This document shows positions 3,830 to 23,960 of a stretch of 64,000 nt of DNA, piece by piece (position 1 is the stretch's first letter; every line of letters begins with the position of its first letter). Position numbers and translations under genes: made by a program. The notes below the pieces were generated by a model, which did no database searches, was not told the origin of the DNA, and worked only from the letters and a program-made list of their open reading frames with translations. Source of the stretch: Flavobacteriaceae bacterium UBA1903 (GTDB lineage: Bacteria; Bacteroidota; Bacteroidia; Flavobacteriales; Flavobacteriaceae); contig DDGL01000016.1 of the NCBI GenBank assembly GCA_002337605.1, positions 293,935 through 357,934 of the forward strand, in the 5' to 3' direction.

Positions 3830-4006
3830 ATGAACGCCACTATTGTTTTTAGCATCGTACAGGCACTTCCCCAGGAAGAGCAACAGGCGTTGTTGAAAAT
3901 GATGAAGTCGGCCGTTGCACCTTCACGGTTGCAACCGCCACAAAAAGAAAAGTTGCTCACCCGGGCGGAGGCGGATGCTTTTATATTAAGGACGGTTTTT
4001 GGTTAA
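3830..4006 (+). CDS. Small hypothetical protein (58 aa), probably mobile-element associated
   Basis: Translated by hand: MNATIVFSIVQALPQEEQQALLKMMKSAVAPSRLQPPQKEKLLTRAEADAFILRTVFG*; GC-richer than flanks; a decayed second copy at 4810-4879 keeps codon-level similarity. Confidence 0.6.
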   Translation: MNATIVFSIVQALPQEEQQALLKMMKSAVAPSRLQPPQKEKLLTRAEADAFILRTVFG

Positions 4007-4164: not shown

Positions 4165-4737
4165 ATGAAACGGAACTCTATCTTATTACTCTTGATTGTT
4201 GCAATTATTTTTAGTTGTAAAAACGATAGCACTAAAGAGAATGAATTGTTACAAAAAGAAAACGAACTCTTAAAAAAAGAAATAGAATTAGAGCGGAGAG
4301 AGAATTCAATGGATAAGAAAAAATCAAATAAATCAGAAATAGAATCTGAGGATATTAAATCAAAACCATCTAAACGAGATTTGTTATCATCTAATATATC
4401 AGAATTTAATATGCTTCACTCTAAAAGTGAAAATATAAAAGTTCAATACAATGGTGATTTTGTTATTGATATGGGGAGTGCTTCTTCTGGAAGGGTAGCT
4501 GGTAATCTAAAAAATTTGAATCTAAGTTTTGAACATCTACCTGAAAGACCAGGTTGTGCAGATGTTTGCCCAGAAATGATTGTGATTAAATTTGATTGTA
4601 AACTTAGAAAAAAATGTATTTCTGAACCTACGATGTCAGATTTTTATAGCGATTCTGGGACTATTTCAATTGCTAATATCTCTGTTGGCAAAAAGACCTT
4701 TGAACTACTAAATAGGATTAATAAAAATCTAAATTAA
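4165..4737 (+). CDS. Hypothetical lipoprotein
   Basis: Signal peptide with lipobox 'IIFSC', short coiled coil, Cys-rich C-terminal part. Confidence 0.7.
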   Translation: MKRNSILLLLIVAIIFSCKNDSTKENELLQKENELLKKEIELERRENSMDKKKSNKSEIESEDIKSKPSKRDLLSSNISEFNMLHSKSENIKVQYNGDFVIDMGSASSGRVAGNLKNLNLSFEHLPERPGCADVCPEMIVIKFDCKLRKKCISEPTMSDFYSDSGTISIANISVGKKTFELLNRINKNLN

Positions 4738-4809: not shown

Positions 4810-4879
4810 TTACAACCAAAAGAAAAATTACTAACCCGAGCCGAAAGCGGATGCGTTTATTTTTAGGATCGTTTTTTAA
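4810..4879 (+). pseudogene. Frameshifted duplicate of the 3' end of the 3830-4006 ORF
   Basis: Reads LQPKEKLLTRAE(+1 nt)ADAFIFRIVF* versus LQPPQKEKLLTRAEADAFILRTVFG*. Confidence 0.75.
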
Positions 4880-4916: not shown

Positions 4917-5642
4917 CTAACGCTCTACGTCAATATTTAAAATGGGATATAACGAAGAAATTAATTTATCCTCTATGAAGAAACGATTGATGGCATTTTC
5001 TTTACCAGGATAAAGTAAAAAGGAAATTTCTACATTCTCTTTTATTAAAGCTAAGGCATCCCTATTAAAAAGACGTTCCAAACCGATTCGCAATTGACTT
5101 ACAGTGTTTGGTTTTTTACCAAAGCCATATCTGCATTTCGTTAGTCTATTTTTGTTCTTGCATTCTGGCCATAGATGGCTAAGATGGTCATCTGGTTTGT
5201 TCTTGCTCATACTATCTTTCCAAATTGTATTACTATATTGGTTATCATTTTCGGGGTCTATATTGTATCGAAGGTGACCGTCTATTCGTTTTTTAATATT
5301 AGTGCTTTTTCCAACATATAAACAGATATATTCGTCTTTACTAGCTTTGTCTATCCATTCCTTTGTAAAAATCACTTTTAAGAAATGATTTGCCTTCTCC
5401 GAATTGTCGTGTGGACCTTTTAAATAATATTCGGTATTAGGGTTTAACAAGTGTTTTCGAAGCAAGCCATTGTTGTCATTCCACCAAAAAGCATAAATTC
5501 CTTGTTGTTTTAAATCATTAATAATAGGGTTAAGAGAACCGTTATAAATTTTTTCAATTGCATATTTATTTTGATCTAATAAAAGGTCATATGCACCTTC
5601 AATATCACTTAAAGAGAACCTATTTTCAATTCTATCTTTCAT
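4917..5642 (-). CDS. GIY-YIG-like nuclease
   Basis: 'GIYAFW' ... 'LYVGKSTNIKKRI..H' ... 'FIEDKLI...YPILN': GIY/YVG, Arg, Glu and Asn motifs in order. Confidence 0.6.
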   Translation of the reverse strand: MKDRIENRFSLSDIEGAYDLLLDQNKYAIEKIYNGSLNPIINDLKQQGIYAFWWNDNNGLLRKHLLNPNTEYYLKGPHDNSEKANHFLKVIFTKEWIDKASKDEYICLYVGKSTNIKKRIDGHLRYNIDPENDNQYSNTIWKDSMSKNKPDDHLSHLWPECKNKNRLTKCRYGFGKKPNTVSQLRIGLERLFNRDALALIKENVEISFLLYPGKENAINRFFIEDKLISSLYPILNIDVER

Positions 5643-7596
5643 AGGTTGAGTTTAAGATTTCAATCGTTAAATCCTCGTGAGCTTTTAGGTTTTCATCGTT
5701 CCAATCGTCAGCCTGCTCCCACATTAATTCCATTTTTAAACTTTCTAGCTTGTCATCAGGTCTGTGATAGTTCGCTTTCTTTGCTTTTGGTAAGTCATTA
5801 CTGAAACGGGAGTTTTTTTGTTGGCTTATTAGACAAAGATTACCGAATCGATCTATATTATCAAAAGGTGGTTTATCTCCATTTCTAGGCTGTTGAGGAA
5901 AAAAATGTTCTACTGAACTTCTAAAGCCAAATTGAAAATTTTTAGCTTTTTCGATTGCAACAAGATTTTCGTAATTTTCTGTCTCTTGTGTGGTATAATA
6001 CCAAATTAAATAGTCTAGCCTATTAAATATAAAATTTTTGGTCTGTGTGCCTAGACTCCAAATATGATTGCTCACAGATTTATTTTTTGGTTTAGAATTA
6101 TTTTCAAAAATGATTTCTTCATAGTCTAAATCGCCGTCAACCGATTGATTTCGATCAAAGTAAAAAGCATCATTTAACAGTTCTAAATATGTTATAAACT
6201 TATCTGCTTCGATTACTCCATTTTCTGAATTATTGTACAGGTGGTATAAAGTAGCATTAAACCAATGTTTATAGATTCTTGTTGGAAATGATACATGGAA
6301 CATAGATTGCAACATAATGATACGATTATTATCAGTATTGTTTTCATCATCGCTTCCAGCTCGTTCAAATGTATCTTTAAAGTAATGTGATTTTCCTTTT
6401 TGGAACTGATGGATTTGCTTCCTTAATATCCATTTGGTGTCCTGTCCCAAATCTAAATTTCGAATAACATATTTATCAAATAGAAATTTCATTTTGAGCA
6501 GACTATAGCAGAAATCCTTAGCAAACTTGGACGGGTCGTTCTTATCAATATAAACGTGCTCAAATTGTTTAAGTAATTGCTTGTCGTCTAGGGCAATATC
6601 TTTGTTGTTTTCTTGAATTTTTAAAACATGAAGTAAGAAATTAGGGAAGTTAATTACAGCCGTTAGTTGTTCCTCGTCTTGCTTGCCTTCAGGCTCTTCA
6701 AGGTGGACTATTTCAGTTGAATCTAAAATTTGACTAAGACTGGGCTTAGTCGATCCATGTTTTTCTTCTGTTACCTCTTGAGTACTTAAAAATGCATCTA
6801 GCAATTCATCGTAATCTTTTGGTATTTCGTTTCCATCATCTCCAAAGATTTTCTTTCGGGTATTTTTACTATTATTTTCTGTGTTCCTTGTAAAGAACAA
6901 CTGTATGTAACGATTCATATCACTTGCAGCTTCCCATACAGTATTGAATAGTTCCCGATCCTCCGGGTATTCTTTTAGAAAGCTCATTAGGCGTGATTTG
7001 AGAACTTCGTGCTTTTCAAGTTGTTCACCACGCACATTCATAATCTCAAAATAATGGTTGAGATTCGTGTCTGGGGGAACGGCAACTTTTAGAAGAAGCG
7101 TTTTATTTAAAAGGTAGTCTGTAAATTCCTGAGCTGTAATATTAAACTCTTCTAAATAATGACTTAGATTATCTTTAATAATTTTATAGGCAGCTTTAAT
7201 AGCTGGTTCATTTACATCATCAAGTTTTTTATAATAGACTGCTTGTAATGCGCTAATTGAATTGGGTCTGGAATCAAATAATAGAGTGTTAAAATCAAAA
7301 TTTAAACTATAAGACGATTCTTTACTGTGAGAAAGGTAGGCTAGTATGATATATAGCGTGGTCAATCTTTGCTGTCCGTCTATTACTTCTTCTTTTCCTT
7401 GAACTCCCTTATTAATAACTAACGTGCCTAAATAGTAGTTGTCGTTTTGATTGGCTTTTACCTGACTGCATAAGTCAGATAATAGCTGGGACACTTCAGT
7501 AAGTGTCCACGCGAATTCCCGTTGATAAATAGGAATGCTGTAATTTGCAACCTTAAAAATATCAGAAATACTTAACAGTGGTGGATTTTTGGACAT
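5632..7596 (-). CDS. GmrSD-like type IV restriction endonuclease (DUF262 + DUF1524 HNH)
   Basis: 'IPIYQREFAW', 'IDGQQRLTT', 'FEIMNVRG.QL'; C-terminal 'SVEHFFPQ', 'FGNLCLISQQKNSRFSN'. Confidence 0.85.
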   Translation of the reverse strand: MSKNPPLLSISDIFKVANYSIPIYQREFAWTLTEVSQLLSDLCSQVKANQNDNYYLGTLVINKGVQGKEEVIDGQQRLTTLYIILAYLSHSKESSYSLNFDFNTLLFDSRPNSISALQAVYYKKLDDVNEPAIKAAYKIIKDNLSHYLEEFNITAQEFTDYLLNKTLLLKVAVPPDTNLNHYFEIMNVRGEQLEKHEVLKSRLMSFLKEYPEDRELFNTVWEAASDMNRYIQLFFTRNTENNSKNTRKKIFGDDGNEIPKDYDELLDAFLSTQEVTEEKHGSTKPSLSQILDSTEIVHLEEPEGKQDEEQLTAVINFPNFLLHVLKIQENNKDIALDDKQLLKQFEHVYIDKNDPSKFAKDFCYSLLKMKFLFDKYVIRNLDLGQDTKWILRKQIHQFQKGKSHYFKDTFERAGSDDENNTDNNRIIMLQSMFHVSFPTRIYKHWFNATLYHLYNNSENGVIEADKFITYLELLNDAFYFDRNQSVDGDLDYEEIIFENNSKPKNKSVSNHIWSLGTQTKNFIFNRLDYLIWYYTTQETENYENLVAIEKAKNFQFGFRSSVEHFFPQQPRNGDKPPFDNIDRFGNLCLISQQKNSRFSNDLPKAKKANYHRPDDKLESLKMELMWEQADDWNDENLKAHEDLTIEILNSTYER

Positions 7597-8951
7597 TAGG
7601 CTTTGATGAGTTGGTGTTGAGTAAATAATTTAGCTAACTCATTTGAATTACCTCCTATTTGTGTAACAGGCTTAAGTCTATAGATGAGTATTTGAGAGAT
7701 TGTTAAACTTTCCCGTATTAGGCGGATAAGACTATTTGGATGTCTCGCGTGATTGTCAACAGATTCCAATCTTACGGCTGTAAGTTTTATGCGAGGTCTG
7801 TAAGCCCAAAAGAAAATTAATGGAATCACTTTTTCCAGTTGCCTTTCACCAAACTTATCGATGTAATAGAGCAGGGTTACTTCAAAAAGATTGCGACAAT
7901 ATTTATCCCCAGTTCTGTATGATTTAGTGTAGGTGTTCAACTCATTAATAATTGCAAATGCTTTGGAATCAGGAGTATAAAAATCCTTATTTATATTAGT
8001 AAAATTTTTAATTGCTTCAACCATTTTTGATTTGTGCTTTACAAAATCAAAAAACCATTCACCGTTTACGGTAAATGCATCAAGCTGGTGTGGAAAGTGT
8101 TCTTGGCTATCGTTGAAATCATATAATATTTGCTGTTTTAAGCCTACGTATTTTGCATTTATAGCAATTGGCCGGGCATAAGGGTACAGTTGATTGTCTA
8201 AAAGATTCACACCCTTAAAAACCGTGATTTCATCTTTAGAAAAATAGGAAGCACTTTTACCTGTTGACCAATTCCTGATCTTGAAGAAATAATTGGCAAA
8301 TGCATCTTTAAGGAAATGAGGATCGGTATTATCCCAATGCTCAATCACTTTGATTTTTTCAGACTCCTTTAGGTGGCTCATCTCCCGAAGGTGAAACGCT
8401 TTGAGTAAATTATGAGGATATAATGCCTTACCTCTAGAGTTTTGGGAGTCAAAAAACTGAAAAGCTTCTCCCAAATCTGTTATGGTAACCTGAACAAATT
8501 GACATTTATTTAAAAAAAAATGTATCAAGTTCTCATCAAAATCAGTAATCCGCGATTGTATATGAGCGTAATTAGCTTTGAGGTTACCAATGCTAATAGC
8601 GTTATCAAATTTTAATTTGTCTAAACCTGGAGTTTCAAATTTTAAAAAAGGAGTTTCAAATTTTTTTCTTAAAGCTTTATATAAAAGTAATAAGGTTAAG
8701 TAACGTTGTTGACCGTCTACAATTTCTTCTTGATTTTCAGACTCTATATCTTTATAAATAATGATTGTACCTATGCGATAGGCTTTCTTTTCCTGAAAGG
8801 TTATGATGTCATCAATAAGATCGTTTACATTTTTAACCGTCCATTTATAAGGTCTTTGATAGTCTGCGATTTTAAAATTACACTGAAGTAATTTTTTGAT
8901 ATTGAAAATAGCAGCCGTAGGTTCTTGAAGGTTTTTATTTAACGTCTTCAA
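7596..8951 (-). CDS. DUF262 domain protein (GmrSD N-terminal-like, no HNH)
   Basis: 'IADYQRPYKW', 'VDGQQRYLT', 'FFDSQNSRGKAL...NLLKAFHL'. Confidence 0.8.
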   Translation of the reverse strand: MKTLNKNLQEPTAAIFNIKKLLQCNFKIADYQRPYKWTVKNVNDLIDDIITFQEKKAYRIGTIIIYKDIESENQEEIVDGQQRYLTLLLLYKALRKKFETPFLKFETPGLDKLKFDNAISIGNLKANYAHIQSRITDFDENLIHFFLNKCQFVQVTITDLGEAFQFFDSQNSRGKALYPHNLLKAFHLREMSHLKESEKIKVIEHWDNTDPHFLKDAFANYFFKIRNWSTGKSASYFSKDEITVFKGVNLLDNQLYPYARPIAINAKYVGLKQQILYDFNDSQEHFPHQLDAFTVNGEWFFDFVKHKSKMVEAIKNFTNINKDFYTPDSKAFAIINELNTYTKSYRTGDKYCRNLFEVTLLYYIDKFGERQLEKVIPLIFFWAYRPRIKLTAVRLESVDNHARHPNSLIRLIRESLTISQILIYRLKPVTQIGGNSNELAKLFTQHQLIKA

Positions 8952-11667
8952 ATTTTTTTCTGTTTAATGGTTTACAATCATTCTCAATAAAGGCATTCAT
9001 TAATTTTTTAATTTTTTCCAACTTTGATTTGTGGTCTTCACCTACTATAATATTTTCAATTTCTTTAGTCTTTAAATACTCATAATAGTTTTTGAAGCCG
9101 TTCTTTCTAAATTCTTGATAGATCTCTTTATTTGTTTTATCGACTTTTAGAGCATCCCAATCTGCTTTGTTGCAGAAAATCTGACAAAGGAAATCATTTG
9201 GTTTATACGTCTGGTGTTCTTTTGGGAATCCTTCTGGTTCCCCTTTAAAGTCTAGATATTCTCCCCATACAAAGTGAAGAAAATACTTTTGTAAGTGTGT
9301 TTTGAATAGTTCGTCAGCTTCAAACGCTAATATAATTTTATAGTCTTCTGCAATAAAATCAATTTGTAAGGTGTAGTAGCTAAAGTGAATATTATATCCT
9401 ACATTCTGTTTCAGGATGTGCTTGAACTTTTCTAATAATACATTTTTGGTGTTCGATAAATTAAAAGGAAAATTAGGGTAATCGATAGAATTTTTTTCTG
9501 TGTAGAGATCGTCTCTATCTTTTCTTGCACCGTTTATAACAACATCTGCTAAAAAGCGATCTATTGGACCTATACTCACATTAGAATTAATAAGAGCATC
9601 CTTTAAATCTGTATGAGTAAGATTCGGTGTTTTTGCGGAGATATTTTGAATGGTTTTTTCAATTTCCTTGAAATCGTTTACAAGAGAAATGAATTCAAAC
9701 TGATTTAATGCGGTTATAAATTTTGAAAAATCAGTTTTGTTGTCTATAGAATCAGAAATTTCAAACAAATATAACTTTAGCTCATTGAAAGCTTGTAATC
9801 TAACGTTTTGTGACAAACCCTTCATTCTATTTATCAAGTCTATAATGTTACCTGCGTTGAAAGATTCTTTAAATTTAGAGCGCGTATACGCGTCATTAGG
9901 AATTCCATTTCTCAAATAAAAATTAGTGTAATAAGATTTAGAAATAGTATACTGATTTGTTTCATAGAAAGCTTTACTTTTTTCACCGAACAAAATACAT
10001 AAGGAAGCATTGACTATTTCAATATCTTTTGAATCATAACTATTAACTTTCAGTGTATCGAAGAGTTTTTCTTTAGAGCTTTCAGTATAAATATAATGGC
10101 TACCATCATTCTCGTTCCAGCTATCAGTCATTTTTTGATTTACAACGTCATAGTCTTTGTTATCAATAATACTTGATATTTTTTCAAAAACTAAGTTGTG
10201 TAAATTTCTATAGCGAAAAGTTAGAAGTCTAAACAGTACATAATCGGGAAGATAAATATCATTCGTGTTGATTAAGGTTTTACTAAATTTAAATTCATTA
10301 AGAAATCTCTTTAAATCTCTGTAGGTTCTGATAAAATGCTTATAATCTAACTTTAAGTCACTACAAATAAATTGGTTTTCTTCATTATGTAAATTATCAA
10401 GACTAATGTCAGATATATCCAAAGTAGCTTGAAAAGATTTGCCCGCAAATAAGGAATTAAATACTAGAAATAATTTTTCATTTCTAATGCGTTCTACTTG
10501 TTGGTCTTCTTGATTTATACGATGTGGAAATGCTTTTTTAATACCATCCAAAAGTATTTCATTGATTTGACTCTCATCAAATGGTAGGAGATCAATTTCT
10601 ACTTGAAAAATTTTATTTATGTAGTTCTCCTTACTTTTTCCAAGTGTTTTTTCTAGGTAATTCCTGTCATAGCCAGCTAGAAATATTACATTGTCAAAAT
10701 CAGATAATGTTCTTATAATTTTATAAGTATCAAGAATTTCGTTGTCTTCAAGTCTATCCAAATCGTCAAGTATAATTATGATCTGCCGATCTATACGATG
10801 TATAGCTTCTTGAATCTTTTGATAGTACTCTTCAAGACTATGATCTTCTCTAAAGATATCTTTACCAGCTTGTATTAAATTGCTAATCTCTCCCGGACTT
10901 ACACTTAAAATAGCATCAGTATATTTTTCAATATTATCTTCAATTTCAGCAGAGTGAGGCTTGAGGTTTGTTGCGAATTCTTTGAAGAAATTATCAATGA
11001 TGGCTTTATCACCTTTATTTTTCCATATGTGAAACCAGAACATGATGGTTTCGGAATTTGTTTTTCTAAATTCTTGATCAAATCGATGTAAAAAGGTCGA
11101 TTTACCAAAACCCCATTCCGCATTAATCCCTATACTAAATGAGTTTTTTGGCTTGTAATCTGTAATGCTAGTAATCAATTTTTGTACAATTAATTCATTA
11201 TCAATTTCTCCATCTACAAATACAGCATCGTTGATAAAAAAGTCTTTTCTATTTGGATTTGTAATTGAGCTTCGTTCTTTAATGTTGCTCCAGTGAATAC
11301 AATGCAATAGAAAAAATAAAATAACAACATCAATGTATTTTATAAGCGTGGGCTCTGGAAGGTATATAACTCCGTTGTCAAAAAATCGAAAAATCAAATA
11401 ACTTGAGAATAGAGCAATTGCAAGGAAGTGCCCCTTTTTTGAAACTATATATTTTTTATCTATTAAAAAGAGGTAGCCACTTAATCCAATAATTATCAAT
11501 AAAATATAGCCTAGCTTAAACTCAGTTGATTCAAAATTGAAGAGTTTGCCTAAATCAATTAAAAGATTCTGTATGGTGCTTTTAAAAACAAATAAAATTG
11601 CAATAATTGATAGATACCGCACTACATACTTTCTGTTATTTTCTATCAAATCATTCAACATTTTCAA
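8935..11667 (-). CDS. KAP-family P-loop NTPase with N-terminal transmembrane helices
   Basis: About 4 N-terminal TM segments; Walker A 'AEWGFGKST'; Walker B 'IIILDDLDRL'; 'YINKIFQVEIDL'. Confidence 0.85.
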   Translation of the reverse strand: MKMLNDLIENNRKYVVRYLSIIAILFVFKSTIQNLLIDLGKLFNFESTEFKLGYILLIIIGLSGYLFLIDKKYIVSKKGHFLAIALFSSYLIFRFFDNGVIYLPEPTLIKYIDVVILFFLLHCIHWSNIKERSSITNPNRKDFFINDAVFVDGEIDNELIVQKLITSITDYKPKNSFSIGINAEWGFGKSTFLHRFDQEFRKTNSETIMFWFHIWKNKGDKAIIDNFFKEFATNLKPHSAEIEDNIEKYTDAILSVSPGEISNLIQAGKDIFREDHSLEEYYQKIQEAIHRIDRQIIIILDDLDRLEDNEILDTYKIIRTLSDFDNVIFLAGYDRNYLEKTLGKSKENYINKIFQVEIDLLPFDESQINEILLDGIKKAFPHRINQEDQQVERIRNEKLFLVFNSLFAGKSFQATLDISDISLDNLHNEENQFICSDLKLDYKHFIRTYRDLKRFLNEFKFSKTLINTNDIYLPDYVLFRLLTFRYRNLHNLVFEKISSIIDNKDYDVVNQKMTDSWNENDGSHYIYTESSKEKLFDTLKVNSYDSKDIEIVNASLCILFGEKSKAFYETNQYTISKSYYTNFYLRNGIPNDAYTRSKFKESFNAGNIIDLINRMKGLSQNVRLQAFNELKLYLFEISDSIDNKTDFSKFITALNQFEFISLVNDFKEIEKTIQNISAKTPNLTHTDLKDALINSNVSIGPIDRFLADVVINGARKDRDDLYTEKNSIDYPNFPFNLSNTKNVLLEKFKHILKQNVGYNIHFSYYTLQIDFIAEDYKIILAFEADELFKTHLQKYFLHFVWGEYLDFKGEPEGFPKEHQTYKPNDFLCQIFCNKADWDALKVDKTNKEIYQEFRKNGFKNYYEYLKTKEIENIIVGEDHKSKLEKIKKLMNAFIENDCKPLNRKKFEDVK

Positions 11668-11719
11668 ACTATAAAGAGATTATTAAATAATAGGCATTTT
11701 ATTTTCAAGATTCCCCTCG

Positions 11720-11766
11720 AAAACCTCCCAGGATCAACTCTAAATTAAGTGCTGACTAGGTTCTTG
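11720..11766 (-). repeat. Decayed copy C of the hsdS 3' end
   Basis: 36/47 identical (hand alignment) to 12921-12967; reads QEPSQHLI*S*SWEVF versus hsdS QEHSEQLMQSCLREVF. Confidence 0.75.
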
Positions 11767-11797
11767 TCTTGGTTATTTTAATTTATAAGATTATTTA

Positions 11798-12037
11798 TTA
11801 TGCAGGCAAAATAGTTAGTTTACTACCATTGACTGGGCTGATTTTTACATTTTTACTACTTAAACAATTTCTGACAGCTAAATCTAACTCATCTATATGT
11901 TCAAATCTATCTGATACTAACAAGAAACAAACAAGAAACTCATTTGGGCTATTCCTATTCATTAAGCTCAACCGAGTTTCTCTTGCCAAATAACAAGTCT
12001 CTAATTGGTCACGTATCTCGATTAATAGTTCCTCCAT
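11798..12037 (-). CDS. Small hypothetical protein (79 aa)
   Basis: ORF fills the space between two hsdS-tail repeats, same strand as neighbours, A-rich leader. Confidence 0.5.
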   Translation of the reverse strand: MEELLIEIRDQLETCYLARETRLSLMNRNSPNEFLVCFLLVSDRFEHIDELDLAVRNCLSSKNVKISPVNGSKLTILPA

Positions 12038-12054
12038 AATTGTATGCTTTAATT

Positions 12055-12102
12055 AAAAACCTCCCTCAAACAACGCTGCATTAACTGTGTACTATGTTCT
12101 TG
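12055..12102 (-). repeat. Decayed copy B of the hsdS 3' end
   Basis: 41/48 identical (hand alignment) to 12920-12967; reads QEHSTQLMQRCLREVFN*. Confidence 0.85.
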
Positions 12103-12104
12103 GT

Positions 12105-12893
12105 TTAGTTGTATTTAATACAGGATTTATAAAAGTTATTAATTTCATCTATATATTTATAATCTTGTAACTTAGAAATTATTTCTTCATAGAAAAGAGG
12201 TTTTATTACTGTTTTTTCAAGAACTGGATTAAATTTTGTTTGTAACCATTTTATTCTTTCTTCATAATCGACTTCATTTTTATATTGTTCAACCCTTTCT
12301 TTAACTCTATCAAAAATGTCTGTTTTATCTAAGAACTTTTTAAAATTCTTCTTCTTCTTATTGTATTGATCTTCGGGAACCACTAAATAAAAACCTATAG
12401 ATAAGTCATTTAATACTTCTAATTTATCTGCTTCGTCAATCGTCTTTGCTATGCAGGCAACGTACCTCGCTGCTTGATTATAAAATGTAGCATTACTAAC
12501 TTTTTTAGAAAATCCAGAATTAATTTTTGCCTCAAAAATATTTAACTTGTTCCCTTTAAAATGCAAAGAACCTTTGCTATTGACGTTTCCAATTTCAAAA
12601 TTTCCAATTACACCATCAGCGTGCGTATGAGTTTCAGCAAGTGGATCTCCTCTAAATCTTTGTAAGAATGGAGAGTACAGTAATCCTTCACTAAAAAATT
12701 TATCTTTTTCATTTACATATAGTGGATGCTCTTTTAAACCAAAATCTGTAATGGCATGAACTAACAATTTTAACAACCAACCTTCATTATAAAATTCTGT
12801 TGGATGTGTGTATGCTTTCCAATATTCAAAAAAATCAAATAATTTATTTAAGTCGTAGCTTTTATCATCTATTCGTTTTTCCTGTTCACTCAT
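12105..12893 (-). CDS. Putative PD-(D/E)XK nuclease
   Basis: 'NEGW' ... 'HADGVIG' ... 'IFEAKINS' ... 'NQAARY'; ATGA overlap with the hsdS stop. Confidence 0.55.
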   Translation of the reverse strand: MSEQEKRIDDKSYDLNKLFDFFEYWKAYTHPTEFYNEGWLLKLLVHAITDFGLKEHPLYVNEKDKFFSEGLLYSPFLQRFRGDPLAETHTHADGVIGNFEIGNVNSKGSLHFKGNKLNIFEAKINSGFSKKVSNATFYNQAARYVACIAKTIDEADKLEVLNDLSIGFYLVVPEDQYNKKKKNFKKFLDKTDIFDRVKERVEQYKNEVDYEERIKWLQTKFNPVLEKTVIKPLFYEEIISKLQDYKYIDEINNFYKSCIKYN

Positions 12894-14596
12894 ACCTCAA
12901 CAGTTTTATGTTCTCCCTCAAAAACCTCCCTTAAACAACTTTGCATTAACTGCTCACTGTGTTCTTGACTTTGCAGTACTTCTTGCTCTAAAGCATCACA
13001 TAAACCCATTAAAGCATTTACTTTTTGGACGATGGCTTTTTGTTCTTCTAATGGCGGCAACATAAACATTAGAGATTTTAATTTTATTATTGTTAGGGCA
13101 CTATATGCAGTACCTGATACTTTACCTAAAACTTCATCCATAAAAGTTGGACTTTTAATAAAAAGTTGAGTGTAAAAAGTATCTACATAATCACTTCTAT
13201 TTATTTGCGTAATATTTCCATCTTTATAATAAAACTCTCTATCATCTGCAACCCAAGTATTTCCAATACTACCAACGGATGTTATTAATAAATCCCCTTG
13301 TTTTGGTGCTCCAAATTTTTTCGATATTTCTAAATACTTTTGATTTGATATAAATAGTTTTGACTTTGCTTTATTACCTCTAGAAAAATCTCCAATTTCC
13401 TTTGACCTATAAAAAGGAACACCTTGTTTTACATAATCAGCTTCATAAATTCTTTTACTAGACCCAATTTGTGAGACGGTACCCAACCTACACCAGACCC
13501 AACTTTCAGGTAATTCATAAGGAATTTCATCTGTTGTAATTGGTGGAAATGGTTTTTCCTTTTTTATTTTTTTGTCTTTGATGAGTTGTGCTTTCTCTTT
13601 CTGGATGCGTTTTAATAAAATTGACGCATCTTCTATATTAGGATTATTTGCGCGCCAATCTGCTGTGAGTTTACCTTGAACGGCTAATTGTAAAATGGTT
13701 TCTCGTAACTTTTTAATGTTAGTTGTTTCATTAAAAAAGGTTTTAAAATGGTCTTGTAAAAAAGTCCATTCTTGTTTTGCATTATTGGTGGTGAGTTGGT
13801 TTAATGCTGAAGTAACAAAGTCTTCTTTTAAACTAATTCGCTCAACGGTTAATTGCTCTAATTGCTCAACTTCTTTGAATAAGGTTTCTACAACTTCTAC
13901 GATTGCTTTTTGTTCTTCTAGTGGTGGAATTGGCATGACAATTTTCTCAATATTGTCTTTACCTATATTCGGTTGTGCATTTTGATTTATCCGTTCTCTT
14001 ACCAAACCTTGAAATAGCTCAGACTCTAATATTACATTAAGAAAGTCAAGCGAAATTACTCTTTCATCAGCAAAGAAATTGCCAACACGGTAGTTTTGAA
14101 CTAATATACCATAGTCTTTGTCGACCCTAGTCACCTTGCCTAACGTTCCTCCTGTCAAGGCCATAAGAAGGTGGCCCTGAAAAATTAAATCATCCTGAAA
14201 TTCATCCTTTCTATTTGAATCAATATAGTTACACTTTGTGAAATCTAATGTTCCGTCAGATTTGCACTGACCAATTTTGATAACAGGAATACCCTCTTCA
14301 ACAAAATCATATTTTCTAAACTGGTGTCCATGTCTTAGTTCTGCTACATCAATAAATTTAGCCCATTCCCAAGTAGAATTTAGTTTAAATGGAATTTCAC
14401 TTTCTTGAACAATTTGCAATTCCTTTTTTGCCTTAATAGATTCTAAATTAATTGAAGCCTTATTAACATTTGGATTATTTGTTCGCCAGTCTCCTGTTAA
14501 CTTACCTTGCACTGCCAATTGCATGATTAAACCTTTTAATTCTTGGGCATTTGTAGGTCTAACCGTAAGTTCTTTAAAATGTTGTAGTAATTGCAT
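12890..14596 (-). CDS. hsdS: Type I R-M specificity subunit
   Basis: Two TRDs each followed by 'PPLEEQKAIV'; duplicated 'LAVQGKLT.DWR.NNP' conserved regions. Confidence 0.92.
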   Translation of the reverse strand: MQLLQHFKELTVRPTNAQELKGLIMQLAVQGKLTGDWRTNNPNVNKASINLESIKAKKELQIVQESEIPFKLNSTWEWAKFIDVAELRHGHQFRKYDFVEEGIPVIKIGQCKSDGTLDFTKCNYIDSNRKDEFQDDLIFQGHLLMALTGGTLGKVTRVDKDYGILVQNYRVGNFFADERVISLDFLNVILESELFQGLVRERINQNAQPNIGKDNIEKIVMPIPPLEEQKAIVEVVETLFKEVEQLEQLTVERISLKEDFVTSALNQLTTNNAKQEWTFLQDHFKTFFNETTNIKKLRETILQLAVQGKLTADWRANNPNIEDASILLKRIQKEKAQLIKDKKIKKEKPFPPITTDEIPYELPESWVWCRLGTVSQIGSSKRIYEADYVKQGVPFYRSKEIGDFSRGNKAKSKLFISNQKYLEISKKFGAPKQGDLLITSVGSIGNTWVADDREFYYKDGNITQINRSDYVDTFYTQLFIKSPTFMDEVLGKVSGTAYSALTIIKLKSLMFMLPPLEEQKAIVQKVNALMGLCDALEQEVLQSQEHSEQLMQSCLREVFEGEHKTVEV

Positions 14597-14627: not shown

Positions 14628-16058
14628 TTATTTTAAAGCTTCAGTTAATACATTTATAATTTCGTCTTGTATGCTAGCAATTTTTTGTTCGGTAGTTCTA
14701 AACTTTTCTAACAACACTTCTGGACTTGCCAAAGTATCAATTTCTTGGTGTGGGTTTTTGATATCTAAATTATAACCTCGTTTTTTAATGTCTTCAATAG
14801 AGACTTTCCAAGCCTGTGTATTTTCTTCGCGATTATTCCACCACGCTTTTTCTACATCAAACTCTTTGATGTGTATCGGTTTTCCTTTGTTATAACTTTT
14901 TACACCATCGGGATATGGATGCTCATAATACCAAATTTCTTTGGTTGGTGTGCCTTTTTCAAAAAACAATAGATTGGTTTTAATACCTGTATAAGGATTA
15001 AAAACACCATTTGGTAAACGCACAATGGTATGCAGGTTGCAACGCTCTAATAGTTCCTGTTTTAAACGTGTTTTCATCCCTTCGCCAAACAAGGTTCCAT
15101 CTGGTAATACAATGGCGCAACGGCCGTTATTTTTAAGTAACTTAATAATCAAGGCTAGGAATAAATCGGCTGTTTCTTTGGTTCTAAATTTTTTAGGGAA
15201 GTTGGTTTCGGTTCCATCTTCTTCCACTCCTCCAAAAGGAGGATTGGTGACAATAATATCTAACTTATCTTTTACACCCCAATCTGCATAAGGCTTGCTT
15301 AATAAATTATCTCTACGTACTGCTGGTAAATCAAAACCGTGTAGCATTAAATTGGTGGTACACAGCAAATGAGGTAACGGTTTTTTCTCGATACCTCTAA
15401 TAGAATTTTGCAGTATATCTCGGTCTTTAGGAGTTTTTACTTGCTCACGTAGATGATCAATAGTACAGGTTAAAAAACCCCCTGTACCACAAGCCGGGTC
15501 GAGTATGCTTTCTCCTAACTGCGGATCAATCATATCTACCATAAACTGCGTCACCGCTCTGGGGGTGTAATATTCACCAGAAGAGCCAGCAGATTGCAGT
15601 TCTTTTAAAATGGTTTCATAAATATCATTGAATAAGTGACGCTCTGTGGTGCTATTAAAGTCAATCTCGTTAATCACATTGATGACCTGACGGAACAAGG
15701 TTCCGTTTTTCATATAGTTGTAGGTGTCATCAAACACCGAACGAATAATAGTAGCTTGTGGGCTTATGGAAATGTCTAAATCTTTAAGTGCAGGAAATAA
15801 TTCATTATCAATAAACTCCATTAAGGCATCTCCCGTTAACCCTTCATCGTCTGCTGCCCAGTTTTGCCATTTTAAATTCTCAGGGATTGGAGATTCGTAA
15901 TTGTCAATCGTTATTGCCCATTCTTCTTCTTTATCGGCAAAAATTTTCATAAAGAGCATCCACACCATTTGCGAAATGCGCTGTGCATCTCCATCTACTC
16001 CTGTATCCTTACGCATGATATCGCGTATGCCTTTTATGTTTGTTGTTATGTTACTCAT
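14628..16058 (-). CDS. hsdM: Type I R-M N6-adenine methyltransferase
   Basis: 'GEYYTPR', 'LDPACGTGGFL', 'NPPFGG'. Confidence 0.95.
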   Translation of the reverse strand: MSNITTNIKGIRDIMRKDTGVDGDAQRISQMVWMLFMKIFADKEEEWAITIDNYESPIPENLKWQNWAADDEGLTGDALMEFIDNELFPALKDLDISISPQATIIRSVFDDTYNYMKNGTLFRQVINVINEIDFNSTTERHLFNDIYETILKELQSAGSSGEYYTPRAVTQFMVDMIDPQLGESILDPACGTGGFLTCTIDHLREQVKTPKDRDILQNSIRGIEKKPLPHLLCTTNLMLHGFDLPAVRRDNLLSKPYADWGVKDKLDIIVTNPPFGGVEEDGTETNFPKKFRTKETADLFLALIIKLLKNNGRCAIVLPDGTLFGEGMKTRLKQELLERCNLHTIVRLPNGVFNPYTGIKTNLLFFEKGTPTKEIWYYEHPYPDGVKSYNKGKPIHIKEFDVEKAWWNNREENTQAWKVSIEDIKKRGYNLDIKNPHQEIDTLASPEVLLEKFRTTEQKIASIQDEIINVLTEALK

Positions 16059-16692
16059 TATTAATGATTTCTTCTATAGTTTTAAAATTTACTCTAGGTC
16101 TTGAAAGAATGTTGTTATTTGAATCTTCTCCGGCATAAAAAAATATGCTACATCTTGAATATGATGCTCTATCTGCATTTGAAAAAGAAGCTCTAATGGT
16201 ACTGCATAACCTACGGCGATTCTTATTAACTGCAACAAATATTGCATTTTCAAAATTTAATTGTTCAACATAATTCAAAAGTTTTATAATATCATAGATA
16301 TCTTTTGCAGAAGTATCGTCACCAGTTTTAACCTCAACAATAACCTTCTGAAAGTTATAACCTCTATCATCTTGATCCTTATGGAGTACTATATCAGGAC
16401 TAACTCTTAAATAAGCTCCTAATTTCTGTCTTACATCTGGGTCTTCGCAAGAGTAACCACAGTCTCTAAGGTTTAAATGTCTATCAACTTTACTAATTTC
16501 ACCATTTAGCTGCAGAAGGTTATATTTTACTTGGTTTTTAAGCATTATTAGACGAATCTGATGATATAATTCATATGCAAAGACACGCTCAATTTGCTGA
16601 AAATCATGAATAGATTGATATCTCCATTTAGCATACTTTGGCTCTACTTCTTTACAAGCTTTATATATATCATATCCGTAACTACTAAGCAC
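16051..16692 (-). CDS. Putative PD-(D/E)XK nuclease inserted between hsdR and hsdM
   Basis: 'ERVFAYELYHQ', 'NGEISK', 'PDIVLH', 'IVEVKT', 'DIIKL'; overlaps both neighbours by 8 nt. Confidence 0.65.
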   Translation of the reverse strand: MLSSYGYDIYKACKEVEPKYAKWRYQSIHDFQQIERVFAYELYHQIRLIMLKNQVKYNLLQLNGEISKVDRHLNLRDCGYSCEDPDVRQKLGAYLRVSPDIVLHKDQDDRGYNFQKVIVEVKTGDDTSAKDIYDIIKLLNYVEQLNFENAIFVAVNKNRRRLCSTIRASFSNADRASYSRCSIFFYAGEDSNNNILSRPRVNFKTIEEIINNE

Positions 16693-19054
16693 TGGTATTG
16701 TATATTTCGTTTTCTAATTCCTTAATAGCTAGTTCAAAATCCTTTTGTTTTCCAAAAGCTCTTACTAGTTCAACGGGAGACCCCATTTCGTTTAAAGGTT
16801 TTACTTTAAGAACAGAACCTTGCTCAATTGACACAATCCCTTCTTGTTCGTATTTGTCCAACAAGCTATTTAATACCTTTTGTGCTGTTTCATTGTATTT
16901 GCCAAAGTAGTTTCGTTTGCGCACATTGTTTGCACGTTCTTTTCTCGTTAGTGCTGGTTGGTCAAAAGCGATGTGGCATATTAAATCAAAGTCATCTAAA
17001 TCTAAGCCCACATCTTCGCGTAGGGCTTCGAGTAATACACCGTGATCTGCCAATTCTTTTATGAGTTCTTCTTTTTTTTCAGATTCACTCCATTTTTGGA
17101 TAAAATCATCAAGTGAGGTAAACTCCTTTTCTATATTTTTCTTTGAGTAATCTTTTAAGGATTCTGTAATCAATTTGCCATTCTTACCGTAGTATTGCAC
17201 ACGCTCATTTGCAATAGTTACTGGGATGTTATTTACATAAAACTTTTTTACTTCATCGGTTTCTGGATCTATAGTAATATTTGGCGGTGAATATGGAGGT
17301 GGATCATTGGGTTGAGGTTGTCCAACAATTCCGCTAGGTGGAACAGGATCTGGAGGAACGACAGGTTCACCTGGTCCTGGTTCGTATATTTGTACGGGAT
17401 CACCATCAAAATCGGGTCGTGCAAAAATATTGGTTGCCTTTCTAAAATCCATGATGGTGAAATATACTTTTCCTTCGGCTTCTCTAATGCGGGTTCCTCT
17501 ACCAATAATTTGCTTAAATTCTGTAACGGAGTTTATATTAGATTCCAAAACAATAAACTTTACCATTTTGGTATCAATTCCGGTAGTCAACATTTTTGAG
17601 GTCGTTGCTATAACAGGAAAGGGTTCTTCCACATCAGTAAAATTGTCAAGTTCTTGTTTTCCAACCTCGTCATCTCCTGTAATTTTTACGCAGTAATTCC
17701 AATGTTTGGCCACCAAGTCGGCATTCTCATTAATCAATGCCTGGCGCATTCTATTTGCATGATCGATATCGGTACAGAACACGATAGTTTTTGCAAAACG
17801 GTCAGTTGCTTTCAGGTATTCAGTTATTTTCTTTGCTACAACTTCTGTTCGTTCATCAATGGCTAATGTTCTATCGTAATCTTTTAAATTGTAAATACGA
17901 TCTTTTATTTCATTTCCATACTTATCAAGTAGACCAGAAGTTGGCCTCCATCCATCATCTACACTGGTAGTGATTCTTACCACCTTATAAGGTGCTAAAA
18001 ATCCGTCATCAATGCCTTGTTTTAAAGAATAGGTATAAACAGGCTCGCCATAATAATCCATATTGGAAACATCTTTTGTTTCCTTGGGAGTCGCCGTCAT
18101 ACCAATATGGGTTGCAGATGAAAAGTAGTCTAGTACTTCTCTCCATGCCGAAGCTTCTGAGGCACTTCCCCTATGACACTCATCAATAACTACTAAATCA
18201 AAAAAGTCTCTGCTAAATTCTTTGTAGGCATTTTTTTCTTCATCATTGCTGGTTAATCCTTGATATAAGGCAAAGTAAATTTGATAAGATTTATCAATTT
18301 TTCTATTTTTAATGATGTGCATAATATCATTTCCAAAAGGGGAAAAGTCTCCGTTTTTGGTTTGTGTCAATAATGCATTTCTATCTGCCAGGAATAAGAT
18401 GCGTTTTTTCACTCCGGTTTTCCACAATCTCCAAATTATATTAAAGGCGGTATAGGTTTTCCCAGTTCCTGTTGCCATTACCAACAGAATTCTGTTTTGC
18501 TCCTTTGCAATAGCCTCTAATGTTCTATTAACTGCATTCTGCTGGTAATATCTTGGATTCATTCCGCTATCGTCAACTAAGTATTCCTTCTCAACAATCT
18601 CTTTGGCTTTAGGGGCATCAAGATTCTTATATGCTAAGTATTTTATCCATAATGTATCAGGAGTAGGAAAATCATCTAATGAAATTTCTTGTTCAACCGC
18701 TCCGATTTTGTTTGTTTTGTCATGAAATACAAATGAATCTCCATTGGAAGTAAAAACAAAAGGTATTTGAAGAATTTCTGAGTATTCTAATGCTTGTTGC
18801 ATTCCAGAACCAACAGGTTTTTTATTATCCTTTGCTTCAATTATTGCAATTGGTAGATTTGGTTTGTAGTATAATATATAATCGGCTCTTTTACTTTTTC
18901 CTCGTGTATATAATTTACCTTGAACAATAATGCGTCCATCGGTAAAGGAGACTTCTTCACGTACTTGTTTTTTCATATGCCATCCAGCCTTTTCAATTGC
19001 TGGGTTTATGAATTTTGAGCAAATATCTCTTTCGCTTAGGTGTTTTTTGTTCAT
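16685..19054 (-). CDS. hsdR: Type I R-M restriction subunit (EcoEI/EcoAI-like)
   Basis: 'ADYIL...IEAK', 'MATGTGKT', 'DECHRG', 'MTATP', 'FKQIIGRGTR', EcoEI-type C-terminus; start taken at MNKKHLSERDI (19054). Confidence 0.95.
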   Translation of the reverse strand: MNKKHLSERDICSKFINPAIEKAGWHMKKQVREEVSFTDGRIIVQGKLYTRGKSKRADYILYYKPNLPIAIIEAKDNKKPVGSGMQQALEYSEILQIPFVFTSNGDSFVFHDKTNKIGAVEQEISLDDFPTPDTLWIKYLAYKNLDAPKAKEIVEKEYLVDDSGMNPRYYQQNAVNRTLEAIAKEQNRILLVMATGTGKTYTAFNIIWRLWKTGVKKRILFLADRNALLTQTKNGDFSPFGNDIMHIIKNRKIDKSYQIYFALYQGLTSNDEEKNAYKEFSRDFFDLVVIDECHRGSASEASAWREVLDYFSSATHIGMTATPKETKDVSNMDYYGEPVYTYSLKQGIDDGFLAPYKVVRITTSVDDGWRPTSGLLDKYGNEIKDRIYNLKDYDRTLAIDERTEVVAKKITEYLKATDRFAKTIVFCTDIDHANRMRQALINENADLVAKHWNYCVKITGDDEVGKQELDNFTDVEEPFPVIATTSKMLTTGIDTKMVKFIVLESNINSVTEFKQIIGRGTRIREAEGKVYFTIMDFRKATNIFARPDFDGDPVQIYEPGPGEPVVPPDPVPPSGIVGQPQPNDPPPYSPPNITIDPETDEVKKFYVNNIPVTIANERVQYYGKNGKLITESLKDYSKKNIEKEFTSLDDFIQKWSESEKKEELIKELADHGVLLEALREDVGLDLDDFDLICHIAFDQPALTRKERANNVRKRNYFGKYNETAQKVLNSLLDKYEQEGIVSIEQGSVLKVKPLNEMGSPVELVRAFGKQKDFELAIKELENEIYNTSA

Positions 19055-19188
19055 TTTGGTTAGTATGTTGCTCGGTAAATATAATAAATCACATAGATGA
19101 ATGCTTACGTATAAACCCTTAATTAGATGGATAACCATACATCCAATTTGCAGGTCGTTTAACTAATACATGTGGATGTTTCGATTAC

Positions 19189-21132: not shown

Positions 21133-21432
21133 TTATTTTGAATAATTTCTACTGATTCGCTTAAATTTTAAGTCATAGGTTTCTGCATAGTTACCTACTT
21201 GCACTGAAAACGTTTCGCCCGAAGCACCTAAAAATTGATCTATTTTTAAGTACTTACGTGATACTTTTTTTAAATCTTCGTTGAGCACCTCTAAATAGCT
21301 GCCATCTTGTACGACAACTATTTCGCTCGAATTACCTAAAAAGACGTCGTTGCAATAGGCCCGTTTAATTTTACGTCCATTTTTATCGTAAGTTTCTAAA
21401 TAATTCCCGTCAACTTTTACTCTTGAAATCAT
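21133..21432 (-). CDS. Small hypothetical protein with three internal beta-rich repeats
   Basis: DGNYLETYDKNGRKIKR / DGSYLEVLNEDLKKVSR / VGNYAETYDLKFKRISR; stop abuts the KAP start; start taken at 21432. Confidence 0.65.
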   Translation of the reverse strand: MISRVKVDGNYLETYDKNGRKIKRAYCNDVFLGNSSEIVVVQDGSYLEVLNEDLKKVSRKYLKIDQFLGASGETFSVQVGNYAETYDLKFKRISRNYSK

Positions 21433-21638
21433 ATTTTTTTGGTTTGCGGTATTGGTTAGCACTGTTATTAGTCATTATACGTAGGTGTTTTTTTATTTTT
21501 TAAGGATAAACAATAACAAATATTCAGGTTTGCATTTCCAGAAATTTAAAATTTGATGACTTTCCAAAAATGCCCAAATCATCTTGCCAGCAAAGAATAG
21601 GGCTATTTTTTATATACATTGTTGTCTCTCGTTTTTTC

Positions 21639-23840: not shown

Positions 23841-23876
23841 AATACGCTTTCGAATACGATTTGGAATACGTTTTTG
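23841..23876 (+). repeat. Three 12-bp-periodic AATACG repeats (candidate integrase arm-type sites)
   Basis: AATACGCTTTCG AATACGATTTGG AATACGTTTTTG at 23841, 23853, 23865. Confidence 0.7.
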
Positions 23877-23943
23877 AATTTTTAGCGAGACGCACCCTTC
23901 GGAAGCCCCTGTAAATAGGGGTTGACAGAAATTACGAGCTTAA

Positions 23944-23960
23944 CTCATAACCCGAAGGTC
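23944..23960 (+). other. tRNA-Met (CAT) 3' fragment, candidate att core
   Basis: CTCATAACCCGAAGGTC equals the anticodon loop, 3' anticodon stem and variable loop of initiator tRNA-Met, followed by degenerate CAGGTT; no 5' half, so not a tRNA gene. Confidence 0.65.

Follow-up and report, generated by a model that had tools for sequence, protein, structure and literature searches.

[quoted passage not shown] Coordinates are positions in the window, by which we mean the whole 64,000-nt stretch of DNA that was analysed.

A type I R-M locus with dead hsdS ends

The locus encodes complete hsdR, hsdM, and hsdS (Pfam, PADLOC), and all of its genes are on the minus strand: hsdR, a 213-aa gene, hsdM, hsdS, cargo1 (262 aa), a 79-aa gene, and the KAP operon, in this order. 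The stop codon of hsdS overlaps the start codon of cargo1 (ATGA).

16685..19138, minus strand: hsdR, type I restriction subunit, 817 aa (Pfam ResIII, EcoEI_R_C, and HSDR_N; PADLOC REase_I, E=0)
16051..16692, minus strand: 213-aa gene in the slot between hsdR and hsdM, overlapping both (weak PD-Lambda-3_A match)
14628..16058, minus strand: hsdM, 476 aa (Pfam N6_Mtase and HsdM_N; PADLOC MTase_I, 8.8e-220)
12890..14596, minus strand: live hsdS, 568 aa, two target-recognition domains (Pfam Methylase_S twice; PADLOC Specificity_I, 2.3e-106)
12915..13060, minus strand: conserved C-terminal region of hsdS, from which all hsdS stubs derive (about -170 to -25 relative to the stop)
12105..12893, minus strand: cargo1, 262 aa, no known family (open reading frame; no Pfam, NCBIfam, or PADLOC match)
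12049..12113, minus strand: stub B, a dead hsdS 3' end that ends in QLMQRCLREVFN and a stop codon (85.4% identity to the live tail over 48 nt, 41/48)
11798..12037, minus strand: 79-aa gene, no known family (open reading frame list)
11703..11780, minus strand: stub C, an older dead hsdS 3' end with stops (containing REVFEGNLEN), before the KAP operon (77% over 57 nt)
4917..11667, minus strand: distal unit, the KAP operon (Pfam and PADLOC matches)
8935-11667, minus strand: membrane KAP NTPase of the distal unit
7596-8951, minus strand: DUF262/DUF7834 gene of the distal unit
5632-7596, minus strand: GmrSD gene of the distal unit
4917-5642, minus strand: GIY-YIG gene of the distal unit

PADLOC matches were obtained for KAP/PifA-like, GmrSD, and DUF262, and none for cargo1 or the 79-aa gene. 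The genes from hsdR to the KAP operon may be co-transcribed with the R-M operon. A promoter/terminator scan of the minus strand from hsdR to 8077 found no terminator-like site, which backs co-transcription only weakly because Bacteroidota promoters lie outside the coverage of the scan; its promoter counts were at the level of shuffled sequence.

The tail of the live hsdS (12920-12967, copy A) recurs downstream in two further direct copies (copies B and C, i.e., stubs B and C), and a repeat search found these three to be the largest direct-repeat family in 8-20 kb. In BLAST searches with the hsdS tail as query and the DNA downstream of it as target, stub B scored 56 bits and stub C 46 bits. The 118 controls, which used the reverse strand or the upstream sequence at 59 loci, all scored lower, with a maximum of 32.8 bits. 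A search of the whole genome with the tail returned only the tail itself and copy B. The stubs in the window correspond to the last 48-80 nt of hsdS only, have no target-recognition domain, and contain stop codons and no start codon. They also match tails of other loci, stub B that of L087 (90% over 61 nt) and stub C that of L004 (75% over 79 nt).

An earlier note on this DNA had reported the tail three times in direct orientation, the 41/48 identity of copy B, the stop codons in copy C, and a single gene between each pair of copies with the KAP operon following copy C, all of which we confirmed. It had placed the start of copy B 2 bp past the cargo1 stop codon; the repeat is real, but its similarity extends about 12 nt further 5', into the end of cargo1. 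The cargo1 stop codon and the next base lie within hsdS-derived sequence (CTAAAC versus CAAAGC in hsdS), and in the junction alignment the last two codons of cargo1 (TAC AAC) are a microhomology in common with hsdS. The reported increase of decay with distance from hsdS holds in the window, but not in L005, a locus with three stubs.

Cargo1 is possibly a PD-(D/E)xK-type nuclease, as D93...E121-A-K123 is invariant across 25 homologues. Its AlphaFold model (pLDDT 90.5) had no significant match in the PDB (best E at least 0.077), and the weak, nonsignificant top matches at that level include R.BspD6I, McrC, and BstEII. Repeats as a general property of cargo1 homologues were considered and rejected: repeat flanks exceed the 99th control percentile at 4 of 76 cargo1-homologue loci, two of which are hsdS stubs, and the repeats at the other two (L040 and L071) do not correspond to the 3' end of any clear upstream gene. 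A type I gene occurs within the locus at only 10 of 80 cargo1 loci, which ties the repeats to the hsdS locus rather than to cargo1.

Stubs and junctions in related loci

The C-terminal region of hsdS has 75-93% DNA identity across the family, as sampled by 17 genome loci and by the closer of the metagenome loci. The genes trailing hsdS and those in the hsdR-hsdM slot differ in nearly every one of the 17 genome loci, and relatives carry other genes or none in the slot. No real hsdR 3' stubs were found in this slot, where the piece of the hsdR end retained before hsdM is no longer than about 13 nt.

Four further loci from Flavobacteriaceae, all with this type I R-M family, each contain one to three stubs, and the intervening genes differ. 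Two unrelated hsdS families have one stub each (G007, 49 nt, 88%; G196, 79 nt, 90%), and in two unrelated families stubs flank a gene for a cargo1-type protein. The window also has a stub of a gene other than hsdS:

3940..4000, plus strand: 3' end of a 58-aa island backbone ORF (3830-4006) that is homologous to an ORF of the G007 island; source of the stub
4815..4876, plus strand: frameshifted stub of the last ~22 codons of the 58-aa ORF, behind an inserted lipoprotein gene at 4165-4737 (local alignment)

The local alignment of this stub scores 57; the highest control score among 400 random windows was 28. The architecture is not bound to one sequence, occurring with three hsdS families and the 58-aa ORF, which we count in favour of displaced alleles.

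Most stubs begin 0-40 nt past the stop codon of the preceding gene (up to about 100 nt in L090), and their 5' limits lie at -45, about -90, about -103, and -142 to -167. All joints fall within the last ~170 nt of the 1.7-kb hsdS except in L092, where the stub lies behind a DDE transposase (IS) and about 320 nt are hsdS-like. The stub in L086 equals the L005b stub minus 74 nt, a deletion, and the stub in L090 follows Fic and an HsdR with 68% identity to the G007 type and just 25% to the window type.

The array is polarised and directly oriented, its joints are tight against the preceding stop codon, and three independent stubs begin near -90, all of which would fit an integron-like system, with the hsdS tail acting as an att site for some recombinase that inserts cassettes next to hsdS. 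This proposal of the earlier note is nevertheless extremely improbable. The stub limits vary and include the 74-nt deletion variant, the same architecture accompanies three unrelated tail sequences and a non-hsdS gene, and stubs also follow an R-M system of another family (L090) and an IS transposase (L092). Stub B differs from the live tail at its 3' end and is therefore not a duplicated target. None of the three tail copies has a hairpin or attC-like fold on either strand (DNA-fold z-scores of -0.38 to +1.49 versus shuffled sequences). No integron integrase was detected, the best whole-genome match to TIGR02249 scoring 105.9 bits versus a cut-off of 265 and none being near the locus, and no recombinase gene lies within 4.9-23.5 kb, in or beside the array; the only one nearby is the island integrase beside tRNA-Met. 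The earlier note itself held that random junction positions, or copies derived from whole tandem hsdS duplications, would speak against its proposal, and this is largely what we found: the limits vary from -45 to -167, and the copies probably derive from whole former hsdS genes, as the stubs with the genes behind them correspond to intact junctions elsewhere.

Three cases of such correspondence were found. Stub B and the 79-aa gene are colinear with L129 in stop codon, 12-nt spacer, and ATG; there, the sole homologue of the 79-aa gene (38% identity) lies directly behind a complete hsdS that ends in GVFN and the stop codon. Ahead of family F10, the stubs of L090 and L091 correspond to the point in L084 where an intact hsdS meets F10, and the L086 stub ahead of F8 corresponds likewise to an hsdS-to-F8 junction in L088. 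Judged by these alignments, stub B is the relic of an hsdS allele that was once directly followed by the 79-aa gene, and the stepwise, polarised addition behind hsdS at its conserved tail, as proposed in the earlier note, agrees with these junctions and with the like arrangement of related loci. For stub C, an intact hsdS-KAP junction was looked for as its origin and not found; in L108, a weak KAP homologue lies 600 nt behind hsdS, and L006 has a KAP homologue in the same distal place as the window.

Local copying of the genome's own hsdS tail at each insertion, by slippage or as a long target-site duplication, would likewise leave direct-repeat copies around single genes, and in G007 both tail copies run through the stop codon to +3, as such copying could produce. 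We give it almost no credence. The end of stub B (REVFN and the stop codon) and the spacer behind it fit the junction of another allele and not the live hsdS, which ends in REVFEGEHKTVEV and a stop codon. Stubs are also no nearer to the tail of their own genome than to other tails, and the stub behind cargo1 is older than the split of the five loci in which it is found.

In four of these five loci (the window, L004, L005, and L006), the cargo1-stub joint is identical, and in L007, where cargo1 has a C-terminal extension, it aligns at the same place. The genes after this stub differ in all five (79, 218, 204, 195, and 323 aa), as do the genes before cargo1. The junction alignments show that one cargo-stub joint is common to several genera.

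That one joint has a different partner downstream in each of the five loci, and different ones upstream, would also be expected if cargo and stub formed a mobile unit that moves between type I loci. The stubs would then be working, portable homology arms, and RecA-type recombination between stub and resident hsdS tail, by double crossover or through an excised circle, would take the place of the recombinase in the model of the earlier note. At 48-170 nt, the stubs have sufficient length for homologous recombination at low frequency, which supports such movement, and the 3' part of stub B belongs to the junction of another allele, as a crossover within the stub would yield. We consider such mobile units unlikely, as they leave the first origin of each cargo-stub joint unexplained, and some stubs (L090 and L092) have no homologous hsdS upstream of them. 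Further points against them are the neutral evolution of the stubs and their rarity. The feature is uncommon: stubs were found at 1 of 41 unselected hsdS genes and at no more than 1 of 44 metagenome loci (self-tail test), and many cargo genes lie behind hsdS without a stub (e.g., 7 kb in L004). Apparent stubs in the metagenome loci L152, L167-169, L171, and L176 proved to be long split or multiple hsdS genes, a different phenomenon.

Identity between stubs is 55-75%, versus 70-79% at third codon positions of cargo1, and this comparison shows the stubs evolving neutrally, no slower than synonymous sites. Gene conversion and selection as processes that keep the stubs similar to the live tail were both rejected by comparing stub and tail divergence. 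Stubs often retain the original stop/start overlap with the next gene, and L005 and L086 have a common 27-nt leader that creates an ORF in which MKIEIGINK is fused to the HsdS C-terminal helix. Both would fit selection for stubs, either as the start context or promoter of the next gene or as a mini-protein of this helix. We regard this as improbable, given the stops and absent start in the window stubs, the neutral level of divergence, and the loss of the conserved GGGAGG core through indels in L004 and L005; the relics appear to be without function.

Probable displacement of hsdS alleles in a tRNA-Met island

The locus sits on a ~28-kb defence island at tRNA-Met, which comprises the tRNA gene, an adjacent tyrosine integrase, and a far-end direct repeat of the 3' part of the tRNA:

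C12:289923-289996, 4 kb left of the window: tRNA-Met (aragorn and BLAST on the genome)
C12:290809-291306, about 3 kb left of the window: tyrosine integrase (PF00589 match)
23944..23960, plus strand: attR-like, exact 17-nt copy of tRNA-Met at the right end of the island (aragorn and BLAST)

A 28-nt arm repeat accompanies the 17-nt tRNA match (window 23852-23960).

The three copies are one live and two dead hsdS 3' ends, and under displacement each stub with its trailing gene would be the remainder of an earlier hsdS-plus-trailing-gene pair. Islands of this kind swap type I R-M modules with related islands; an incoming R-M block would bring its own trailing gene, and its right-hand joint would fall in the terminal ~50-170 nt of the hsdS already in place. 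With this joint inside the conserved C-terminal region, the resident trailing genes would be kept and moved one place outward, and two rounds would give hsdS, cargo1, stub B, the 79-aa gene, stub C, and the KAP operon. General recombination would provide the joints, making a dedicated recombinase unnecessary. The crossover on the left side, or one in an existing stub, would be homologous, via conserved hsd sequence, and a new cargo-stub joint would first arise by an illegitimate, microhomology-type event. Afterwards, stubs decay at the neutral rate and shorten by deletion, and young ones could still serve as homology for later swaps.

The comparisons across loci support a polarised, stepwise stacking of gene units just behind hsdS, with the conserved hsdS tail as the usual place of the joints. 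The kind of recombination at each joint and the order of events are what we infer. No recent event was seen among the relatives, the closest of which are already about 15-25% diverged, so that no before-and-after pair exists, and at this age of the joint sequences homologous and illegitimate joints are indistinguishable.

The joints are tidier than random illegitimate recombination predicts, which counts against displaced alleles as the source, as do the absence of a recent event and the failure to find an hsdS-KAP junction for stub C. This orderliness could come from deletional trimming together with selection against stubs that carry a target-recognition domain. It is very improbable that the hsdS C-terminal region is an actively targeted, homing-like, polarised capture site for defence genes, at which a nuclease of the array (e.g., the putative cargo1-type nuclease) or a trans-acting factor would make breaks and repair from related islands would copy genes in.

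Meaning and comparison with known systems

Defence genes are known to gather at type I R-M loci, and embedding in these loci is used to predict new systems; to our knowledge, how the genes reach these loci has not been described. Dead hsdS ends are a simple sequence footprint of this accretion, with new units beside the live hsdS and older ones pushed outward, and ordinary recombination between related mobile islands would suffice to leave it. The footprint can order acquisitions in time and mark unit boundaries within one array, and it nominates cargo1 and the 79-aa gene as independent defence candidates. Because the effect is uncommon and the relics are apparently functionless, its value lies in understanding island evolution and not in a new molecular machine.

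In homology-facilitated illegitimate recombination, genes are added beside an anchor via one homologous crossover and one microhomology joint, and in the minimal mobile elements of naturally transformable bacteria, genes are swapped between conserved flanks; these processes were shown experimentally in Acinetobacter, Streptococcus, and Neisseria. The hsdS locus is alike in that foreign genes lie beside a conserved anchor gene, and we know of no such additions or swaps described for hsdS, Flavobacteriia, or multi-stub arrays. Tandem tRNA islands each leave a copy of the tRNA 3' end, made by the integrase at a fixed core site. There, too, successive acquisitions are set apart by repeats of the 3' end of a conserved gene, but the limits of the hsdS stubs vary and no integrase is associated with them.

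Integron cassettes (attI x attC, IntI) similarly form a polarised array with the newest unit beside a fixed site and are driven by an upstream operon or promoter, whereas the stub array has no IntI, folded attC, or fixed cassette boundary, and its repeats come from a protein-coding gene. Phase-variable multi-hsdS shufflons also have extra partial hsdS copies near a type I operon, and some distant loci in our survey are of this kind, including inverted hsdS pairs. Shufflon copies carry target-recognition domains, are often inverted, are accompanied by a recombinase, and switch specificity; in contrast, the window stubs have no target-recognition domain and separate unrelated genes.

Defence genes embedded in type I R-M loci ("guilt by embedding") resemble our case in the variable defence-type genes behind hsdS and between hsd genes. 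One study called the hsdS-hsdR slot "a potential recombination hotspot" (PMC12255303), and a preprint, the text of which contains neither "recombination" nor "hsdS", used gene embedding to predict new defence systems (10.1101/2024.01.29.577857). Both give no mechanism or footprint, whereas the dead hsdS ends record the order and manner of acquisition; a literature search found no description of hsdS stubs between trailing genes. The PeSLs of T4-type phages are short repeats between non-essential genes in hyperplastic regions and, as the stubs may have been, are recombination points, which in these phages allow the gain, loss, and swapping of single genes (PMC2839356, PMC4122927). PeSLs are conserved, functional promoter-terminator cassettes that give detectable mini-circles, whereas the stubs are decaying relics of coding sequence.

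Copies of the hsdS tail in the window

The largest direct-repeat family between 8 and 20 kb consists of three copies of the hsdS 3' end, namely the live tail (copy A, 12920-12967) and two short dead ends downstream, referred to here as stubs (stub B, ~12049-12113; stub C, ~11703-11780). When the tail was compared with its own downstream DNA, copy B was identical at 41 of 48 positions (56 bits) and copy C matched at 77% over 57 nt (46 bits), against a best of 32.8 bits in 118 control comparisons. The three direct copies described in the earlier note are real, and no further tail matches were found elsewhere in the 3.4-Mb genome. The identity given for copy B also held, but not its limit, as the similarity actually reaches ~12 nt further 5'. 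The cargo1 stop codon is located in hsdS-derived sequence, and the last two cargo1 codons (TACAAC) are microhomology with hsdS. The whole locus is on the minus strand, in the following order.

Genes of the locus (window coordinates, strand)
16685-19138, minus: hsdR
16051-16692, minus: 213-aa embedded gene, between hsdR and hsdM
14628-16058, minus: hsdM
12890-14596, minus: hsdS
12105-12893, minus: cargo1, 262-aa gene
11798-12037, minus: 79-aa gene
4917-11667, minus: four-gene KAP operon (KAP NTPase, DUF262/DUF7834, GmrSD, GIY-YIG)

Because the genes overlap or are closely spaced, and no terminator-like sites were found on the minus strand down to 8077, co-transcription of the trailing genes with the R-M operon is plausible. 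The part of the island upstream of hsdR (19189-23552) encodes a second KAP NTPase, this one soluble (647 aa) and with a 109-aa repeat protein before it, together with a membrane protein of 637 aa that carries nuclease-like domains.

A tRNA-Met gene 4 kb and a tyrosine integrase ~3 kb left of the window (genome C12:289923-291306), and a 17-nt exact, attR-like tRNA-Met copy with a 28-nt arm repeat at 23852-23960, place the whole defence cluster on a ~28-kb tRNA-Met island. The corresponding locus of G007, a genome of the same genus, contains a backbone ORF homologous to that of the island as well as an integrase.

Cargo1 is a member of an unnamed protein family in which a D...E-A-K motif is invariant. 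The AlphaFold model of cargo1 is confident (pLDDT 90.5) but has no significant PDB neighbour; the weak top matches are restriction-type nucleases, and cargo1 may be a nuclease. A distant homologue (L040, 6751-8699) is divergent from an adjoining DNA methyltransferase with an SPPY motif, a neighbourhood suggesting that the family includes type II restriction endonucleases.

Recurrence of stubs and variable gene content

Four close flavobacterial loci with the window's hsdRMS family also have dead hsdS ends behind hsdS: one in Lutibacter sp. (L004), three in Lacinutrix (L005), two in L. agarilyticus (L006), and one in Bizionia (L007). They are the exception among 80 genome-derived cargo1 loci, few of which are near type I genes. 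In G007, a cargo1 homologue (33% identical) lies behind an hsdS of a different family, and after the homologue comes a 49-nt copy, at 88%, of the tail of that hsdS. A tail search found the window's hsdS family in 13 of 401 genomes of the bacterial family, the window's own included, and short stubs occur in four of the 12 others (G134, G140, G412, and G083). An unselected survey of 41 hsdS genes of many hsdS families in the same order added one case, G196, with a 79-nt stub (90%) downstream of a 302-aa gene and with two DUF262 genes and hsdR following the stub. Among metagenome loci with a related hsdM, a self-tail test gave a stub in at most 1 of 44. The feature is thus real and of independent origin in at least three hsdS families, yet uncommon. 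More distant hsdM-family relatives (L152, L167-L169, L171, and L176) have an additional 0.3-1.8 kb of hsdS-like sequence after their first hsdS ORF, more than 1.3 kb in four of them; these were rejected as short stubs, being a distinct phenomenon of split or multiple hsdS genes.

Some stubs have no homologous hsdS upstream. In L090, a Fic gene and an HsdR stand ahead of a stub and a gene of family F10; this HsdR is 68% identical to the G007 type vs 25% to the window's, and an R-M system of another family has taken the place of the original one. In L092, a DDE transposase precedes the stub. The window itself has a non-hsdS example: at 4815-4876, behind an inserted lipoprotein gene (4165-4737), there is a frameshifted repeat of the final ~22 codons of a 58-aa island backbone ORF (3830-4006), with a score of 57 vs at most 28 in controls. 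The architecture is thus confined neither to hsdS nor to one sequence.

The genes behind hsdS and between hsdR and hsdM differ in nearly all of 17 genome loci of the window's R-M family. The hsdR-hsdM slot (window 16051-16692; L006, L007, L084, L088, L089, L093, L095, and L096) holds a different gene nearly everywhere, or none, and measures 0 to 2.1 kb among the window and related loci. No hsdR stubs were found in this slot in related loci, with at most ~13 nt of the hsdR end kept before hsdM. At the far end of the variable region, a 279-aa DUF4357/RAMA protein (family F4) recurs (L005 13192-14031, L084, L087, L091, and L095), which may be a conserved right-hand flank for swapping the whole trailing block.

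Origin and decay of stubs

Colinearity between a stub with its following gene and the intact hsdS-gene junction of another locus was found in three cases. Stub B (...REVFN and stop, with the 79-aa gene starting at an ATG after a 12-nt spacer) matches metagenome locus L129, in which the only homologue found for the 79-aa gene comes immediately after a complete hsdS ending ...GVFN and stop. Likewise, the L090 and L091 stubs before F10 match the hsdS-to-F10 junction of L084, and the L086 stub before a gene of family F8 matches the hsdS-to-F8 junction of L088. By this colinearity, a stub is what is left of a whole hsdS that formerly stood immediately before the gene now behind the stub. The live hsdS/cargo1 overlap GAGGTATGAGTGAACA... 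(giving MSEQEK) of the window and L007 is also present in the F10 genes of L090 and L091, and thus hsd-derived sequence extends a few codons into whichever gene follows.

The window, L004, L005, and L006 share an identical cargo1-to-stub joint, and in L007 the joint aligns at that position; each of the five loci carries a different gene behind this stub, and the content between hsdS and cargo1 differs as well. The joint is old, and the 3' side of its stub was exchanged later, most simply through crossovers with other hsdS tails within the stub. Other joints are independent, and stub starts, in nt counted back from the hsdS stop codon, vary by locus: ~-45 (G007), ~-90 (the cargo1 stub, stub C, and L086), ~-103 (L005c and L006a), and -142 to -167 (L005b, L090, L091, and L092). 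Removing 74 nt from the L005b stub gives the L086 stub, and one 27-nt leader precedes both; hence stubs become shorter through deletion. This leader, ATGAAAATTGAGATTGGTATAAATAAA, puts MKIEIGINK in frame with the HsdS C-terminal helix, and the resulting small ORFs (82 aa at L005 9348-9596, 37 aa at L086 112-225) could be mini-proteins mimicking the HsdS coiled coil, or chance ORFs.

Stub-to-stub identity (55-75%) is not higher than that of cargo1 third codon positions (70-79%), and stubs are no nearer to the live tail of their own genome than to foreign ones. By these two comparisons there is no sign of selection or gene conversion acting on the stubs, which are neutral relics.

All joints are in the conserved hsdS region with the exception of L092, the IS case, in which ~320 nt of hsdS-like sequence is left. 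Most fall 0-40 nt past the stop codon of the gene before them, with up to ~100 nt in L090, and three are near -90, a placement tidier than random illegitimate joints would give. Stubs retaining a target-recognition domain might form an active half-HsdS; selection against such stubs and deletional trimming are candidate reasons for the tidiness, and an active targeting mechanism has a small probability. All events found are old.

Proposed exchange of R-M blocks between islands

The best-supported explanation is that related mobile islands swap R-M blocks along with their trailing genes by general recombination. An R-M block and its trailing genes would move from one island to another, the right-hand joint landing within the final ~170 nt, which are conserved, of the resident hsdS; the genes trailing this hsdS would be kept, now behind a stub, and repeated rounds would build a polarised array. 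From the earlier proposal of integron-like, one-by-one cargo addition, we retain the idea that units are added stepwise beside hsdS, with its conserved tail as the site. General recombination takes the place of the integron-like machinery: the genome lacks IntI in an integron integrase search, the hsdS tail has no attC-like fold, stub boundaries are not fixed (starts from ~-45 to -167), and the array contains no recombinase gene.

No account of hsdS stubs separating trailing genes came up in our literature search. Type I loci have been described as embedding sites for genes (10.1101/2024.01.29.577857) and their hsdS-hsdR slot as a 'potential recombination hotspot' (PMC12255303). The closest described analogue of the hsdS stub arrays is the PeSL-mediated modular shuffling of T4-type phages (PMC2839356).
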